Notes: a model not told the origin generated them from the letters alone. Counted from the first letter of the stretch, positions 1,712 through 8,121 are shown. The stretch is 11,926 bases of DNA from a virus (UHGV-1578451); one strand, 5' to 3'. Numbers and translations: made by a program.

Positions 1712-1833
1712 TAAAAGCCTCCGTCATAATTCCTGAAACATACCTCAACTTTCCCGCTATAGTGACGAACACGTTGAACAACATCCGAAATAGGCGCTAT
1801 ACCGGCAGGGCGATAAAAGACTGTTTCACGCAT
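1711..1833 (-). CDS. small hypothetical protein (40 aa), translationally coupled between the methyltransferase gene and rusA
   Basis: ATG 1833-1831 overlaps the upstream stop (ATGCGTGA) and is preceded by AGGGGG at a 7-nt spacing. Encodes MRETVFYRPAGIAPISDVVQRVRHYSGKVEVCFRNYDGGF. Its TAA stop (1713-1711) shares one base with the rusA ATG (TAATG). Below the size cut-off of the ORF table; no homolog recognised. Confidence 0.3.
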   Translation of the reverse strand: MRETVFYRPAGIAPISDVVQRVRHYSGKVEVCFRNYDGGF

Positions 1834-3187
1834 GAGTTACCCCCTGCATGCTGTCGACAAGACCTTGCGCAATTGTGATAATTTCGCTGGTGGCCGTTCG
1901 TTCCAGCCAGAGTTGATTGATGTTGGCTTTCAGCTTGTTCTGCTGTGATTCATCCAGCATGTCAGCGCCGTCTACCTGGTCGAATACAATTCCAACCTCC
2001 AGCGGCCAGATACGGGACTCGGGAAGCGGATCCGCTACTGGTTTAGCTTTCTCACGGATGTGCATGCGGATCTGGCGAATATTGGACCAACTGGAAACAT
2101 CCAGGCTTCCCATAGCTGCAATGAAATCAGTACTGTTCATGCCATATTCACCAGATGCTTCAAGGGCAACAGTCCGAATACGTTCCGACATATCCAAGCG
2201 CGCAGCAGCGTCATCGAATTCAATCGACAACAGCCACTCATCCACACCGAACAAAATACTCTCACGAATAAGCAGCTTCGCTTTGTCGATCGTTAATGGT
2301 GATACCTGAGTGAATTCCGGTGCTTCGACAGAATCCGCCGCCCAGGTATGCCCAAACTTCGATTCACTGAATGTGTATTCTTCTTTATCGCCGAACGCAG
2401 CTCTAACGCATGCCCACGCCTCGACACCGCTGATATCAAAAATATCTTTCTGGGTAAGTGGCAACTCTGCTTCTGGCTTGTCAGCTACAGATGGTGTGAC
2501 AGTTGCAGGTTGAGACTTGCTGACAGCAAATTGCGCCAAAGTCATAAACGCCTGCCCTTTTGCCTCCAGTTCTGTACGGTTGATATAGCTGAACCGCTCA
2601 CCACGCCATGACTTATCAAATACAGCTATGGCACCGGCAAAAAACGCGCTGGTGGGCTTCTGTTTTTCGTCAGCCGGTATAAACCACACAGGCAGATCGA
2701 ACCCAATGCGCCCGCGAATGAATACAATGTGATCGGCATCTTCCGGCCACCACGTTTCACTCGGCGCGGCTTTTATCAGGAATACATAGCGACCGCCCTT
2801 CTCGCGCTGGTCTGCTGCGTACTTCATGATGTGCGTCATACCAGTGATCGCCTGTTTCTCGTGATACTGCGAACGGCTATACGGTGGGTTGCCATAACCA
2901 GCGCCACCCAGTTCTGTAAGACGTTCAGACCAGTCCTGCGTCAGCGCGTTATCTTCGGCGGTGTACCATGCCGGGCATTTCGCGTTGTCGTCGTCAGCAA
3001 ACAAGTCCAGAACTAATGGACCAAATAGCGCGTTGATCCCCCAAAAAAGCAGATCCGGTGTCCGCCACTGATCGCCAACTTCTTTCAATTCGTGAGCTGG
3101 TTTGCTACGCAGTGCCGCCAGCGCCTGGCAATATTTATTGGTATCATGAACGAAACCCCGAATTTTCTGGCAGTGAGTAATCAACAC
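1826..3187 (-). CDS. phage Dam-family N6-adenine DNA methyltransferase fused to an uncharacterised ~300-aa C-terminal domain
   Basis: Continuous minus-strand ORF with TGA stop at 1826-1828. Residues ~97-250 of the maximal ORF carry the phage Dam-family signature: DQWRTPDLLF, LDLFADDDNAKCPAWY, GNPPYS (NPPY catalytic motif), FLIKAAPSETWW, FIRGRIGF. The following ~300 residues (FDKSWRGERFSY...AQGLVDSMQGVTHA) match nothing I recognise. The maximal ORF starts at ATG 3361, but its first 58 codons overlap the 3' end of the O-like gene in another frame and look non-coding. I place the start at GTG 3187 (44-nt overlap with O); TTG 3088 is also possible. No candidate has a good Shine-Dalgarno sequence. 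Confidence 0.75.
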   Translation of the reverse strand: MLITHCQKIRGFVHDTNKYCQALAALRSKPAHELKEVGDQWRTPDLLFWGINALFGPLVLDLFADDDNAKCPAWYTAEDNALTQDWSERLTELGGAGYGNPPYSRSQYHEKQAITGMTHIMKYAADQREKGGRYVFLIKAAPSETWWPEDADHIVFIRGRIGFDLPVWFIPADEKQKPTSAFFAGAIAVFDKSWRGERFSYINRTELEAKGQAFMTLAQFAVSKSQPATVTPSVADKPEAELPLTQKDIFDISGVEAWACVRAAFGDKEEYTFSESKFGHTWAADSVEAPEFTQVSPLTIDKAKLLIRESILFGVDEWLLSIEFDDAAARLDMSERIRTVALEASGEYGMNSTDFIAAMGSLDVSSWSNIRQIRMHIREKAKPVADPLPESRIWPLEVGIVFDQVDGADMLDESQQNKLKANINQLWLERTATSEIITIAQGLVDSMQGVTHA

Positions 3188-4010
3188 TCTGGAAGTTTGC
3201 GCGGCTGGCTGAGTTAGTCTCCCATTTGCCGTTAACGCGTTCAGGCCGGCCAGCACTGGACCATTTGGTCGCGCTTTGCAGGTAACCAGGGAAGTTTTTT
3301 GGAATGAACAGAGTTGCCGGGCGGAGGTATTGCGCCTGCTCGCTATCACGCCAATCGGCATTTTTGTAATCCACTACCAGGCACAGGTCATCAACCGTGA
3401 ATTGTTCCCGAAGACGGGCGCGAATATTCTCCAGCGACGTACTGCATACCTGGTAGCGTGAGCCAGTTGTCTGGTTCAGGTAAGACAAGACCTGTCTGGC
3501 CTGATCAGTAATCACAACCTCAGGGTCTGGTTGCGCAGCAACCGGACAAGAGGGTTTTGAAGTTACTTGTGGATCTTGTTTTGATTTTACTGACGGATCC
3601 CCGCCAGATTCTGACGGGTCAAAACCACCGTTTTTGCCAGATTTCGACGGGTCAGTTTTTGAGGCGTCAAATTTTGATGCGTCAGATTTTGATGTGTCAG
3701 AATCTGACAGTTGAGAAAATGCGGCAGTCTGAAGTTTCGCCACATTCAGGCGATACACGTTCGAAGCATTACGGTTACCATTACGGCGCTGTGTACGCGT
3801 GAGCCAGCCATCTTTTTCAAGCTTTGCGATTGCCGTTCTGATAGTGCTCGGGCCCGCGCCAAGCTGGCGAGCAATAGTTTCAATTGACGGCCAGCACACA
3901 CCTTCATCGCTGCTGAAGTCAGCAAGGCGAGCCATGATCGCAACACTGGACAACTTCATGCCCGACGCTGCGCAACCATCCCATACGTAGCCGGTTAATT
4001 TAGTGCTCAT
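3144..4010 (-). CDS. replication initiation protein, O-like (N-terminal winged-helix DNA-binding domain, repeat linker, C-terminal phage replisome-organiser domain)
   Basis: ATG at 4010, TGA at 3144-3146, 288 aa. N-terminus (SSVAIMARLADFSSDEGVCWPSIETIARQLGAGPSTIRTAIAKLEKDGWLTR) is a winged-helix/HTH of the type seen in phage replication initiators. C-terminus (VITDQARQVLSYLNQTTGSRYQVCSTSLENIRARLREQFTVDDLCLVVDYKNADWRDSEQAQYLRPATLF) resembles the conserved phage replication-protein C-terminal domain. A low-complexity linker between them is encoded by the iteron-like repeats. Position after cro/cII matches lambdoid gene order. Confidence 0.8.
   Translation of the reverse strand: MSTKLTGYVWDGCAASGMKLSSVAIMARLADFSSDEGVCWPSIETIARQLGAGPSTIRTAIAKLEKDGWLTRTQRRNGNRNASNVYRLNVAKLQTAAFSQLSDSDTSKSDASKFDASKTDPSKSGKNGGFDPSESGGDPSVKSKQDPQVTSKPSCPVAAQPDPEVVITDQARQVLSYLNQTTGSRYQVCSTSLENIRARLREQFTVDDLCLVVDYKNADWRDSEQAQYLRPATLFIPKNFPGYLQSATKWSSAGRPERVNGKWETNSASRANFQSVDYSLPENSGFRS
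3585..3713. repeat. iteron-like array of ~15-bp direct repeats inside the O-like gene (putative phage replication origin)
   Basis: Plus-strand units: AGATTCTGACGGGTC (3606-3620), AGATTTCGACGGGTC (3639-3653), AGTTTTTGAGGCGTC (3654-3668), AAATTTTGATGCGTC (3669-3683), AGATTTTGATGTGTC (3684-3698), AGAATCTGACAGTTG (3699-3713), plus a degenerate copy at 3585-3599. An AT-richer stretch (3556-3590) follows in the direction of transcription. Lambda places its ori iterons in the same position, inside the O linker. Confidence 0.55.
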
Positions 4011-4962: not shown

Positions 4963-5157
4963 CTATTTTTTTTCATAAAGCTCAGGGTGAAAAACTAAGC
5001 CACCGCCAGTGCGATATGCCGCTTCAGCAGCCCGACCTTTCGGAATGAGGCGCCCAGGCCTATTGCGCCATTGGTAAACGGCTTCACTGGTAATGCCGAA
5101 AAATTCGGCAACTCTTTCGGCATTGCCAAAGTAATTTTCAATATCGTCAGTTGTCAT
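4963..5157 (-). CDS. cro: Cro-like HTH repressor (YdaS family), first gene of the early-right operon
   Basis: 64 aa, ATG 5157-5155 preceded by AGGAGG. Sequence NAERVAEFFGITSEAVYQWRNRPGRLIPKGRAAEAAYRTGGGLVFHPELY matches the YdaS-type Cro pattern (HTH followed by G-G..HPEL). Transcribed divergently from the CI-like repressor across an 86-bp operator region. Confidence 0.8.
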   Translation of the reverse strand: MTTDDIENYFGNAERVAEFFGITSEAVYQWRNRPGRLIPKGRAAEAAYRTGGGLVFHPELYEKK

Positions 5158-5243
5158 GATACCTCCTTAGCTAAGTTTGATTAGATATTAATTATCAATC
5201 TATCTTTGGTCAATAAAAACTAAGATTACTTAGTCCTTTATTT
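5158..5243. promoter_or_regulatory. immunity switch region between cro and cI: PR on the minus strand (TTGACC-17-TAATAT) with operator-like inverted repeats; PRM not resolved
   Basis: On the minus strand, -35 TTGACC (plus coordinates 5208-5213) and -10 TAATAT (5185-5190) are separated by 17 bp, about 28 nt upstream of the cro ATG. Operator-like elements: CTAAGTTTGATTAGAT (5171-5186), CTAAGATTACTTAG (5220-5233, 5-bp inverted arms), the palindrome CTTAGCTAAG (5166-5175), and TAGAT-N11-ATCTA (5182-5202) inside the PR spacer. Confidence 0.6.
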
Positions 5244-5885
5244 GTGAATGGTGCTTCAATGGAAACGGTTGGGCAGCGTATTAAGTCCCTCAGACTGATA
5301 ACTCGAACATCACAGAAAGAGCTTGGGAAGTTCTGCGGAGTGAGTGATGTTGCGGTTGGGTATTGGGAAAAAGATATAAATTTACCGGGTGGGGAATCAC
5401 TGGCGAAACTTGCAAAATTCTTCAATACATCAATTGATTACATCCTATATGGCACCGAATTTGAGGGTAACCTCATTACAAAAATGCGCAGGGTCCCTGT
5501 AATTTCATGGGTTCAAGCTGGTCAATTTACAGAATGTAAGGCTGCTGAAGTTTTCAATGAAGTGGATAAGTGGGTAGAAACGTCCTTAAGGGTTGGCGAT
5601 AGCTCATTCGCGCTGGAAGTTAAAGGGGACTCGATGACAAATCCTAACGGACTTCCCACTATTCCTGAAGGCGCAACCGTGATTGTAGATCCAGATGCAG
5701 AGCCATTTCATGGCAAAATTGTCGTGGCCAGAATAGATGGAACCAACGAAGCGACAGTAAAGAAACTCGTTATTGATGGCCCACAAAAATTTTTAGTCCC
5801 TCTAAATCCACGCTATCCCAACATCCCGATAAATGGTAACTGCCTGATCATCGGCGTCGTCAAAGGCGTTCAATACGAACTTTAA
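5244..5885 (+). CDS. cI: CI-type prophage repressor (N-terminal XRE-type HTH plus C-terminal S24 LexA-like autopeptidase domain)
   Basis: N-terminus QRIKSLRLITRTSQKELGKFCGVSDVAVGYWEKDINLPGGESLAKLAKFF is a classic HTH. C-terminus carries the S24 serine motif GDSM and the downstream Lys pair (VARIDGTNEATVKKL), and a candidate Ala-Gly cleavage site lies in VQAGQF. Divergent from cro. Start is either GTG 5244 or ATG 5259 (METVGQ...). Confidence 0.9.
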   Translation: MNGASMETVGQRIKSLRLITRTSQKELGKFCGVSDVAVGYWEKDINLPGGESLAKLAKFFNTSIDYILYGTEFEGNLITKMRRVPVISWVQAGQFTECKAAEVFNEVDKWVETSLRVGDSSFALEVKGDSMTNPNGLPTIPEGATVIVDPDAEPFHGKIVVARIDGTNEATVKKLVIDGPQKFLVPLNPRYPNIPINGNCLIIGVVKGVQYEL

Positions 5886-5907
5886 AACATAGCTAATCCC
5901 ACCTAAG

Positions 5908-5940
5908 CACCAAGCTAATTAAAGTTTGGTGTTTTTTCTT
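5908..5940 (+). terminator. rho-independent terminator downstream of cI
   Basis: Stem CACCAA (5908-5913) pairs with TTGGTG (5926-5931) around a 12-nt loop, followed by TTTTTT (5932-5937), 23 nt after the cI stop. Confidence 0.6.
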
Positions 5941-5967
5941 GACCATAAAACTAAGTTAAGTTAGATT
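5939..5967 (+). promoter_or_regulatory. PL-like early-left promoter (TTGACC-17-TAGATT) overlapped by an operator copy
   Basis: -35 TTGACC at 5939-5944, a 17-bp spacer, and -10 TAGATT at 5962-5967. The 16-mer CTAAGTTAAGTTAGAT (5951-5966) is a 13/16 match to the PR-side operator at 5171-5186. It lies ~95 bp upstream of the first plus-strand early gene. Confidence 0.45.
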
Positions 5968-6061
5968 TCATTCATCAACAGCGAACAGGCAGGACGCCCA
6001 CGAAGTAGCCGCCGGTGGCGTATGAATAACCGGATGATTCGCACATGGCAGGAGATTGGAT

Positions 6062-6430: not shown

Positions 6431-6499
6431 TTTAGGTACCTACCACCGCGCCTGATGTGGTTAAAAGCAGGCCAAAGCTATAACAAGTAACTCCCTGTT

Positions 6500-6548
6500 C
6501 TGGCGGCCCGGTGTTTTCCCGTTTGTCCGGTAACCGCCAGCCTTTTTC
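6500..6548 (+). terminator. rho-independent terminator downstream of the HTH gene
   Basis: CTGGCGG (6500-6506) pairs with CCGCCAG (6534-6540), with an inner CCGG/CCGG 4-bp extension, followed by CCTTTTTC (6541-6548). Confidence 0.55.
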
Positions 6549-6968
6549 AGGGAATAACAGCCGGTCACGGTAAGTATTTCGCAGAGTGCTTACCGGGACT
6601 GGAAGAGTTAGCACTTGGAGACGGTCCTTATAAATGTCCTGGACAGTGGCGGTACCAGCACTGACAACAGCGGCAGACGTTCAACTGTGTAAACGGAGAG
6701 ATGCCAGCTCGCTCGACGGCAGTGACGGCGGGAAGTAGACCGCTGACAGCTGGGAAAGACCAGCACACAACGATGAGAGCATTGACGAGCAAGGCATAAG
6801 TGCTGGTTCGATTCCAGACAGTCCCATTCAGTTGGGAGGGTTGGGCAGGGAAAAGGTTCATTCGATTCGGACACCGGCAGTGCTCTCTTCGTTGTGGTGA
6901 AGTGCAACCCTTAGAGGTAACCAGAAGATAGCATCTGGCGCCACAACCTTATTGCTGTGTGTAGTCTT

Positions 6969-7203: not shown

Positions 7204-8121
7204 ATGAATAATCCGTTTTTCAAAAATATGTTGGTGTACCGCCTTAGTCGCGATTTCACCATCAACCAGGAAGAGCTGGAACAGCAGCTTGAACTATTTC
7301 GCTTCACTCCATGCGGTAGCCAGGATATGGCAAAAACCGGTTGGGTATCACCACTGGGTCAGCGGTCAGATTGCTTGCATCACACTGTCAATAATCAAGT
7401 GTTGTTGGTTATTCGCCGGGAAGAAAAAATACTGCCATCTCCTGTCATTGCTGAAGAACTACGCCAGCGTGTGGCGCGTCTGGAATCCGATCAGGGGCGT
7501 CGCCTCAAAAAAACTGAGAAAGATTCGCTGCGTGATGAAGTGTTGCACTCCCTGCTTCCTCGGGCGTTCTCCAAAAACTCGACTGTTAGTTTGTGGATCA
7601 ACATCACCGACGGTCTGATCATGGTTGATGCTGCCAGCGCCAAACGTGCCGAAGACTCACTGGCCCTGCTTCGTAAAACTCTCGGTTCTCTCCCGGTGGT
7701 ACCGCTGACTATGGAAGCGCCGATCGAACTAACTATGACCGACTGGGTTCGTTCTGGTAGTGCGCCTGCTGGCTTTGGCCTGGGTGATGAAGCCGAACTG
7801 AAAGCCATTCTTGAAAATGGCGGTATCGGACGCTTTAAAAAACAGGCTCTGGTCAGCGACGAAATTCATGTGCATCTGGAAGCTGGCAAAGTAGTTACAA
7901 AGCTGTCTATCGACTGGCAACAGCGCATTCAGTTCGTTCTTTGCGATGACGGCAGCATCAAGCGCCTTAAGTTCTCTGATGAGCTGACAGAACAAAACGA
8001 CGATATCGACCGTGAGGATGCGGCTCAGCGGTTCGACGCTGACTTTGTTCTGATGACCGGCGAGCTTATCTCTCTCATTAACGGATTAACAACCTCTCTC
8101 GGCGGCGAAGCCAAGCGATAA
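7204..8121 (+). CDS. rdgC: recombination-associated protein RdgC homolog (phage-borne)
   Basis: 305 aa, ATG 7204 preceded by GAGGAA. Closely resembles E. coli RdgC along its whole length ([144 protein letters not shown]) but is clearly diverged from the chromosomal copy as I remember it. Confidence 0.9.

Follow-up and report, generated by a model that had tools for sequence, protein, structure and literature searches.

The region analysed here, a stretch of 11,926 nt from the virus UHGV-1578451 (the window), has the gene layout of a lambdoid immunity region. It raises the question of whether the short related sequences that recur at its two early promoters, PR and PL, are operators read by the repressor encoded in the same region. 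It contains a repressor of the self-cleaving HTH/S24 type, a divergent cro-type gene and repeated palindromes that overlap core promoter elements at PR as well as at PL. We consider it likely, with good confidence from comparative sequence analysis, that a lambdoid prophage uses this region as its immunity switch, on the plan of P22 immC, and that the palindromes are the operators of its repressor.

Gene content and early promoters

The features of the region are listed in Table 1. The repressor combines two domains with different closest relatives. Its N-terminal HTH_3 domain (Pfam, E 2.8e-9) carries the helix GVSDVAVGYWEKD and finds its closest solved match in the N-terminal domain of P22 C2 (E 1.5e-9), while its C-terminal Peptidase_S24 domain (E 4.5e-27) is closest to that of lambda cI (residues 132-236; E 6e-27). 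The S24 domain includes Ala87-Gly88, Ser125 and Lys167, and the VQAG cleavage motif, the GDSM serine and the KKL lysine all align with lambda cI. The divergent ORF of the P22_Cro family, whose product gives weak matches to the structures of N15 Cro and P22 Cro, is separated from the cI ATG by 101 bp. The DNA of the window does not come from E. coli, its best nucleotide matches being about 82% identical; its immunity region is common to phage mEp460_4F5 and some E. coli prophages.

Table 1. Features of the immunity region, with their coordinates in the window
Feature	Coordinates	Strand	Sequence or elements	Remarks
YmfL/CP76 CII-like gene, then DUF4222, then replication protein				beyond the cro-like gene
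cro-like gene	4963-5157	minus	64 aa	Pfam P22_Cro, E 2.6e-10
Site A, predicted OR1-equivalent	5171-5184		CTAAGTTTGATTAG	extended 5169-5186; exact pattern match
PR	5185-5213	minus	TTGACC 5213-5208, 17-bp spacer, TAATAT 5190-5185	consensus scan
Site M, OR2-equivalent, probable weak site	5195-5208		TCAATCTATCTTTG	overlaps PR spacer and edge of −35
Site B, predicted OR3-equivalent	5220-5233		CTAAGATTACTTAG	extended 5218-5235; upstream of PR −35
Putative PRM −10	5221-5226	plus	TAAGAT	same hexamer as the PRM −10 in the P22 record, where it lies inside OR3
cI/C2-like repressor gene	5259-5885	plus	208 aa	HTH_3 N-terminal and S24 peptidase C-terminal domain
cI intrinsic terminator	5905-5937	plus	hairpin 5905-5934, 12-pair stem, T-run 5932-5937	
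Site D, OL2-equivalent, probable weak site	5915-5928		CTAATTAAAGTTTG	inside cI terminator hairpin
PL	5939-5967	plus	TTGACC 5939-5944, 17-bp spacer, TAGATT 5962-5967	consensus scan
Site C, predicted OL1-equivalent	5951-5964		CTAAGTTAAGTTAG	extended 5949-5966; in PL spacer and −10
Structured leader RNA, about 62 nt	5981-6042	plus		from about +8 of the PL transcript
HTH_17 protein gene			122-124 aa	encoded after PL

PR, with a predicted start at about 5178, is taken to drive the cro-like gene and the genes downstream. Two points made in the original prediction can be read directly from the promoter elements: PR and PL use the same −35 hexamer, TTGACC, and the T-run of the cI terminator, which is conserved in close relatives, adjoins the PL −35 with a single C between them.

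The repeated unit is a 14-bp palindrome

The original prediction was based on a pair of 16-mers, CTAAGTTTGATTAGAT at 5171-5186 and CTAAGTTAAGTTAGAT at 5951-5966. These are indeed identical at 13 of their 16 positions, the mismatches being positions 8-10. The idea of a shared operator family is retained, but the unit is not the 16-mer: it is a palindrome of 14 bp, CTAAG-N4-(C/A/G)TTAG, whose four central bases vary and which together with A..T flanks forms a repeated unit of 18 bp. The operator consensus predicted from these sequences is very probably A-n-CTAAG-N4-CTTAG-n-T.

The exact pattern, CTAAGNNNNNTTAG, is found at three places in the window (sites A, B and C), all of them at these promoters. 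Only 0.05 occurrences are expected, and none of 200 shuffles reached the observed count. As the pattern was defined post hoc from the sites themselves, the independent test is its conservation in relatives. Site A lies directly 3′ of the PR −10 and its centre falls on the predicted PR start. The 5-bp arms of site B are perfectly complementary and TAAGAT is contained within it. The final 3 bp of site C are the opening 3 bp of the PL −10.

Two further pairs of CTAAG/CTTAG half-sites, at 5220-5233 and 5166-5175, had also been assigned to the family. The first is site B, a full predicted operator at the OR3 position. The second (CTTAGCTAAG) is not regarded as an operator: its half-sites have no spacer between them and point in the wrong direction, and it is kept in the closest relatives only, the others carrying CCAAACTAAG or TTACTAAG at this position. 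Its minus strand reads CTAAGGAGG, the Shine-Dalgarno sequence of cro.

Conservation in related immunity regions

A scan with one genome per species gave 79 loci encoding relatives of the repressor. The comparison presented here uses 22 relatives whose cI proteins are 65-93% identical to that of the window: 20 full-length loci from the scan, mEp460 and an E. coli prophage locus. They represent nine genera (Enterobacter, Kosakonia, Kluyvera, Rahnella, Serratia, Yersinia, Rouxiella, Providencia and Proteus) as well as E. coli phages and prophages, and all carry the helix GVS(D/G)V(A/S/T)VGYWE(K/R)D.

A motif search across homologous immunity regions had been proposed as a check, and it finds the sites conserved in position in these relatives. 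With at most one mismatch and at the same offsets, site A is present in all 22, site B in 21 and the PL site in 16; in the six loci which do not have the PL site, the DNA after cI is unrelated or rearranged. Measured from the cI ATG, sites A and B lie about 86 and 37 bp upstream and the PL site about 690 bp downstream. In the relatives, site A occurs at −82 to −97 from the ATG and is always 49 bp from site B. Elsewhere in the 22 loci, the exact pattern gives four matches in 79,809 positions. Site C is invariant in those relatives with 83-93% identical cI that retain the PL region, and in mEp460_4F5 and the E. coli prophages all three sites are unchanged while the flanking DNA has diverged by about 20%. 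GGTCAA and the PR −10 are also conserved. Across the aligned loci both 5-bp arms stay constant and only the four bases between them change, which is the signature of an operator whose centre is not contacted.

Two degenerate sites probably complete the arrangement. In OR, the two strong sites are 49 bp apart and site M lies midway, at distances of 24 bp to site A and 25 bp to site B. It aligns with CTAAGTTATGTTGA in L011, CTAATCTTTATTAG in L008/L023 and TCAATCTATCTTAG in mEp460, and it overlaps PR elements that would be conserved regardless. The centre of site D is 36 bp upstream of site C. Relatives have CTAAGTTTAGTTTG or CTAAGAAAAGTTTG (1 mismatch) at this position, 35-36 bp upstream of their PL site, and counterparts 34 bp upstream of the PL site occur in Yersinia (exact) and Providencia (1 mismatch). 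A PWM built from sites of the relatives, which were themselves chosen with the pattern so that its scores are partly circular, places the strong sites at ranks 1-3 of 11,909 window positions (site C first and site A third) and site D at rank 4; site M, at rank 16 with a score of −3.7, is weak when taken alone. From these properties site D is a probable operator and site M a possible to probable one.

Co-variation of the palindromes with the recognition helix

The CTAAG pattern was not found in homologues whose repressors are 41-45% identical to that of the window. At the corresponding places these have palindromes that share the geometry but differ in sequence. In Photorhabdus and Xenorhabdus, the repressor helix is GVSHVAISQWEKE, close to that of P22 (GVSNVAISQWERS), and the sites are TTAAG-N4-CTTAA. 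In Proteus and Morganella, the helix is GVNRVTVTGWEKG and the sites are GTAGG/GTAAG-N4-CCTAC. There are thus three variants of the helix, each matched by its own variant of the arms, on a common scaffold. Such co-variation is the strongest computational evidence for the palindromes as repressor operators, and the CTAAG-N4-CTTAG palindromes at both early promoters are very probably the binding sites of the repressor.

It also bears on the proteins that could occupy the sites in its place. The palindromes might serve, chiefly or exclusively, the Cro-like protein or a different regulator such as the YmfL/CII-like or HTH_17 protein, with the CI-like repressor acting elsewhere. A gene of the P22_Cro family always accompanies the sites, and in both lambda and P22 the operators bound by the repressor are also bound by Cro, so that conservation, like computation in general, cannot separate CI from Cro as the protein constraining the sites. 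In favour of the repressor, the motif changes with its recognition helix across the three specificity classes. The HTH_17 gene is absent from L207, L209, L211 and LLS despite identical repressor and sites; CII-type activators bind direct repeats at PRE rather than palindromes over PR and PL core elements, which argues against the CII-like protein; and no other repeated palindrome is present at these promoters. We therefore judge occupation mainly by a protein other than the repressor to be improbable.

A second possibility is that the sites belong to duplicated promoter modules which are conserved for RNA polymerase. The sequences AAAACTAAGATTACTTAG (5216-5233) and AAAACTAAGTTAAGTTAG (5947-5964) are 83% identical, PL having −35-like, spacer and −10-like sequence in common with the region around 5207-5236, and both stretches lie 3′ of a TTGACC- or TGGTCA-type hexamer. 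Moreover, the likeness between 5171-5198 and 5951-5978 spans 28 nt and so exceeds the palindrome; a rightward promoter with TAGATA at 5182-5187 was considered to account for it and rejected, as there is no −35 at a workable distance. Promoter spacers are normally without sequence constraint, yet here two symmetric arms stay constant and the bases between them change. In addition, site A lies 3′ of a −10 on the other strand, a different promoter context, and the arms vary with the repressor helix while the TTGAC- hexamers stay constant. Conservation for RNA polymerase is thus a still less probable explanation than a different binding protein.

Chance resemblance in AT-rich intergenic DNA can practically be dismissed: a 13/16 match between AT-rich stretches is not rare in itself and the pattern with up to two mismatches is not enriched (6 found and 3.8 expected), but the excess of exact matches and their conserved positions in 22 loci of nine genera speak against it.

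Comparison with P22, lambda and e14

For the reading of the palindromes as repressor operators, the closest model is P22, whose reference record (GenBank NC_002371) annotates OR1-3, OL1-3, PR, PRM and PL. The P22 repressor is 46% identical to that of the window over its full length, and both Cro proteins fall into one Pfam family. With the PR start as reference, the centres of the P22 OR sites are at about +1, −23 and −48 and those of the window at 0, −24 (the weak site) and −48.5, the spacings being 23 and 25 bp in P22 and 24 and 25 bp in the window. PL reads TTGACC-17-TAAATT in P22 and TTGACC-17-TAGATT in the window, with OL1 and site C, respectively, in the spacer and −10. P22 OL2 is located 35 bp upstream of OL1, similar to the 36 bp between the weak site D and site C. 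The operators themselves are alike in their inner AAG, in the uncontacted 4-bp centre and in the outer A..T flanks. Taken together, the conservation of the sites, their co-variation with the helix and the match to the OR/OL layout of P22 support the earlier proposal of one operator family at PR and PL.

The immunity specificity is nevertheless not that of P22. The window combines the half-site CTAAG with the helix SDVAVGYWE, compared to ATTTAAG/ACTAAAG-N4 and SNVAISQWE in P22, and P22-type sites are found with the Photorhabdus and Xenorhabdus homologues instead. In general form, the P22 half-site is A-n-T-(A/T)-A-A-G (T(T/A)AAG or TAAAG) and that of the window (A/G)-n-C-T-A-A-G, while in the helix alignment N32, S36 and Q37 of P22 are replaced by D, G and Y. 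There are additional differences: unlike P22, the window has only two strong sites of the three in OR, and after PL it has a different leader RNA where P22 has gene 24 (N-like) and nutL.

The putative PRM is placed only by analogy with P22, in which TAAGAT lies inside OR3 just as it lies inside site B. Its candidate −35, ATCTAT at 5198-5203, is poor. CTAAGAT, which contains the hexamer, is kept in about 20 of the 21 relatives having site B (the exceptions read TTAAGAT and ATAAGAT), whereas the other centre bases of site B vary. With this −10, the cI transcript would start near 5233 and have a leader of about 26 nt including a Shine-Dalgarno-like GGTG at 5250-5253, whereas the P22 PRM start lies 4 nt before the ATG. 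A Shine-Dalgarno-like element is present 5-9 nt 5′ of the cI ATG in every relative, and a leaderless cI mRNA was rejected for this reason; the window would differ from lambda in this respect.

The resemblance to lambda is more general: cI and cro are divergent, OR is probably tripartite, predicted operators cover PR as well as PL, and the repressor has an S24 C-terminal domain of the self-cleaving type. However, the N-terminal domain of the window repressor is unrelated in sequence to that of lambda, and the window sites are about 16 bp closer to cro than the lambda sites. The lambda operators are 17-bp sites whose sequence is unrelated to that of the window operators.

The e14 element of E. 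coli K-12 (ymfK/ymfT) was considered because BLAST matches are annotated ymfL. It has the same order of LexA-family repressor, cro-like gene and ymfL, as well as the same PL leader RNA. Only the C-terminal domain of YmfK can be aligned (35% identity), and since its N-terminal domain, Cro and palindromes (TGTAC-type) are different, e14 represents a different immunity type.

Five phages share the N-terminal domain of the repressor: mEp460_4F5, LLS, Kati, vB_EcoS-569R4 and vB_EcoM-689R6. LLS (PQ299149), mEp460_4F5 (LR595868) and E. coli prophages have the immunity type of the window, with an N-terminal domain that is 89-90% identical, an identical helix (TSQKELGKFCGVSDVAVGYWEKD) and the same sites and promoters. 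They differ in that the DNA is about 80% identical overall and that the leader and the first genes behind PL are different. The DNA specificity of this immunity group was stated to be unknown in a 2025 paper on LLS (PMC12315714), the only one found to discuss it. A full-text literature search found no paper containing the operator sequences or the leader RNA sequence, and the operator prediction for the LLS/mEp460 immunity type therefore appears to be new, while the layout closely copies the P22 switch. The design principle of such a switch is textbook knowledge and the operators add a member to a well-known kind of system. They provide a concrete consensus for a group which includes LLS, a laboratory-available phage that grows on E. 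coli K-12, and the repressors form a graded natural series related to P22 C2 that would be useful for studying helix-turn-helix specificity and for obtaining orthogonal repressor-operator pairs.

Proposed functioning of the switch

By analogy with these systems, a dimeric repressor of the CI/C2 type would read A-n-CTAAG-N4-CTTAG-n-T through its N-terminal helix-turn-helix. Bound to site A it would block initiation at PR and keep cro and the replication genes off; bound to site C it would block PL and thus the early-left operon. At a higher repressor concentration site B would also be filled and the repressor would block its own PRM, a negative autoregulation like that at OR3. The degenerate sites M and D would probably be filled cooperatively by means of the C-terminal domain, which resembles that of lambda cI. 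After DNA damage, self-cleavage at Ala87-Gly88 (Ser125, Lys167), stimulated by RecA, would inactivate the repressor, and the P22_Cro-family protein would then be expected on the same sites. That the repressor binds the DNA, in which order the sites fill, where PRM lies, that binding is cooperative and that Cro uses the same sites are all inferred.

The best palindrome of the switch occupies the OR3 position. Lambda, by contrast, has its weakest site there. The sites may therefore fill in another order than the one proposed above, and the tuning of the switch may not be that of lambda. If the OR3-type site is indeed the best operator, this would imply a different occupancy order in which negative autoregulation is dominant.

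A structured leader RNA behind PL

The beginning of the PL transcript includes a structured RNA. Its helices P1 (5981-5985/6038-6042) and P4 (6012-6016/6029-6033) display extensive compensatory change: among the matches listed, 97% of cells in P1 and P4 form a standard pair, compared to 31-40% in slid controls, and double-sided changes occur in 206 cells compared to 69 in shuffles, with none of 500 shuffles reaching the observed value. RNAalifold independently predicts the same two helices. From its G-U pairs, the RNA is assigned to the plus strand. The single-sequence fold has an unremarkable energy (z = 0.89), so that the structure is supported by covariation only.

The 23-nt core pattern of this RNA is present in at least 120 viral contigs as more than 100 distinct variants. 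It is located behind PL-type promoters of at least 12 immunity types, in phages without a recognised N protein, and also heads the PL transcript of e14 in K-12. Among the matches listed, the distance to its start from the −10 of the best upstream promoter-like sequence, in most cases a strong one, is 9-46 nt (mostly 19-31), and the promoters concerned carry many different operator palindromes. No Rfam match was obtained across the whole window at E values up to 1, and we did not find the family in Rfam or in the literature searched.

The put sites of HK022 and HK639 are similar in position and size: two adjacent stem-loops of about 70 nt located just 3′ of PL. The fold differs, the leader RNA having a closing helix around two hairpins. 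The covariance model of the leader RNA was negative in the PL/PR region of HK022 and in all of HK639, with no match even at the annotated putL-like RNA of HK639, and a relationship with put was rejected. As a hypothesis only, the leader RNA could be a put-like antiterminator, cis-acting and protein-independent but unrelated to put. If so, it would let RNA polymerase read past the terminator at 6500-6548, and PL would control more than a standard early-left operon. The joint reading, in which the leader RNA defines a new class of antiterminator and the OR3-type site is the best operator in a switch of the P22 family, is tentative and on balance doubtful. In relatives with an identical repressor, sequence divergence begins exactly at the 3′ end of the leader RNA.

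The leader RNA of the PL transcript

The PL transcript begins with a conserved, structured element (see table below) which we regard as a candidate new cis-acting leader RNA. Viral contigs contain more than 100 variants of the element, with a single copy per contig, and it is also found in ST64B, SfV, SfII, ZF40, YeP1, mEp237 and the e14 element of K-12. In the viral contigs it is usually preceded by a strong promoter-like match, and the operators there are of many different types. An Rfam search returned no match, comparison with the put antiterminator RNAs of HK022 and HK639 gave none either, and a literature search using the sequence of the element found no paper. The leader RNA is possibly an antiterminator.

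Its base pairing includes three helices, P1, P2 and P4, and comparison of 66 variants identified compensatory changes at eight pairs. The unpaired stretches (AGGCAGGACGCCCACGAAGUAGCC, GGAUGA) are near-invariant. A further helix, in which 6006-6010 pairs with 6017-6022 (GUAG-CC with GGC-G-UA), is possible and would form a pseudoknot, its loop being the 5′ strand of P4. The nucleotides of this candidate helix are mostly invariant and a single pair varies, appearing as C-G (45), U-G (14) or U-A (3).

Features of the PL region and of other genes in the window, with related sequences in other contigs
Feature	Position	Strand	Basis or remark
Leader RNA, conserved and structured	5981-6042 (searched as 5975-6054)	+	5′ end of PL transcript
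Helix P1	5981-5985 with 6038-6042	+	base pairing
Helix P2, GGC/GCC	5988-5990 and 5996-5998	+	base pairing
Helix P4	6012-6016 with 6029-6033	+	base pairing
Second conserved non-coding module	~6441-6549	+	3′ of HTH_17 gene
Hairpin of second module, ACCAC..GTGGT	~6443-6461	+	
Long-stem terminator of second module, CTGGCGG ... CCGCCAG	6500-6506 ... 6535-6541; T-run 6543-6548	+	
RdgC-family gene	7204-8121	+	Pfam E 4e-117; early-left operon, near repressor
511-aa ORF	1826-3361	-	ORF list
Replication-protein ORF	3144-4010	-	ORF list
Hairpin and boxA after leader RNA, other contigs	L007 ~2290-2320; L009 ~1500-1530; several viral contigs, e.g. L094, L100, L123		

Sequences downstream of the leader RNA

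The end of the element is a sharp mosaic junction. In contigs with an identical repressor and identical operators (L206-L211), divergence from the window sets in precisely where the 3′ strand of P1 ends (..GATGATTCGC), at window position 6043 onward. Past this junction the first PL gene of the identical-repressor contigs differs, and HTH_17, ClpX-type zinc finger, YfdP and other genes are found. Downstream of the leader RNA, some relatives have a hairpin (AAAAAAGCGCCC..GGACGC) and then a perfect rrn-type boxA, GCTCTTTAACAA, an arrangement present in 11 of the 106 distinct contexts among the matches listed. No boxA-like sequence was found in the window.

The second non-coding module may serve as a tL-type terminator or attenuator, or it may be a small RNA. 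In phage LLS, which shares the recognition helix of the repressor and its sites, and in the Enterobacter loci L004 and L020, it directly follows PL with neither leader RNA nor gene intervening.

Operator region and other genes

The PR-side segment 5171-5198 and the PL-side segment 5951-5978 share 75% similarity across 28 nt, extending well past the palindrome (..TTAGAT.T.A.T.ATCAA), and neither a promoter nor a second binding site accounts for this extension. Two relatives have an additional pair of CTAAG-type sites, at -490 and -441 from the cI ATG in L016 and at -566 and -517 in L024. These extra pairs again have a 49 bp spacing and lie farther upstream than the normal pair by 400-500 bp, which suggests an immunity-type control region that is duplicated or a second one.

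Placement of rdgC near the repressor in the early-left operon has been reported for a few lambdoid phages (PMC12315714), and the same authors speculate that such a gene has a RexA-like role (PMC12315714). The 511-aa ORF shares an overlap of ~200 nt with the ORF of the replication protein, and its listed start codon is probably too far upstream; its counterpart in related contigs carries a Dam methylase domain.
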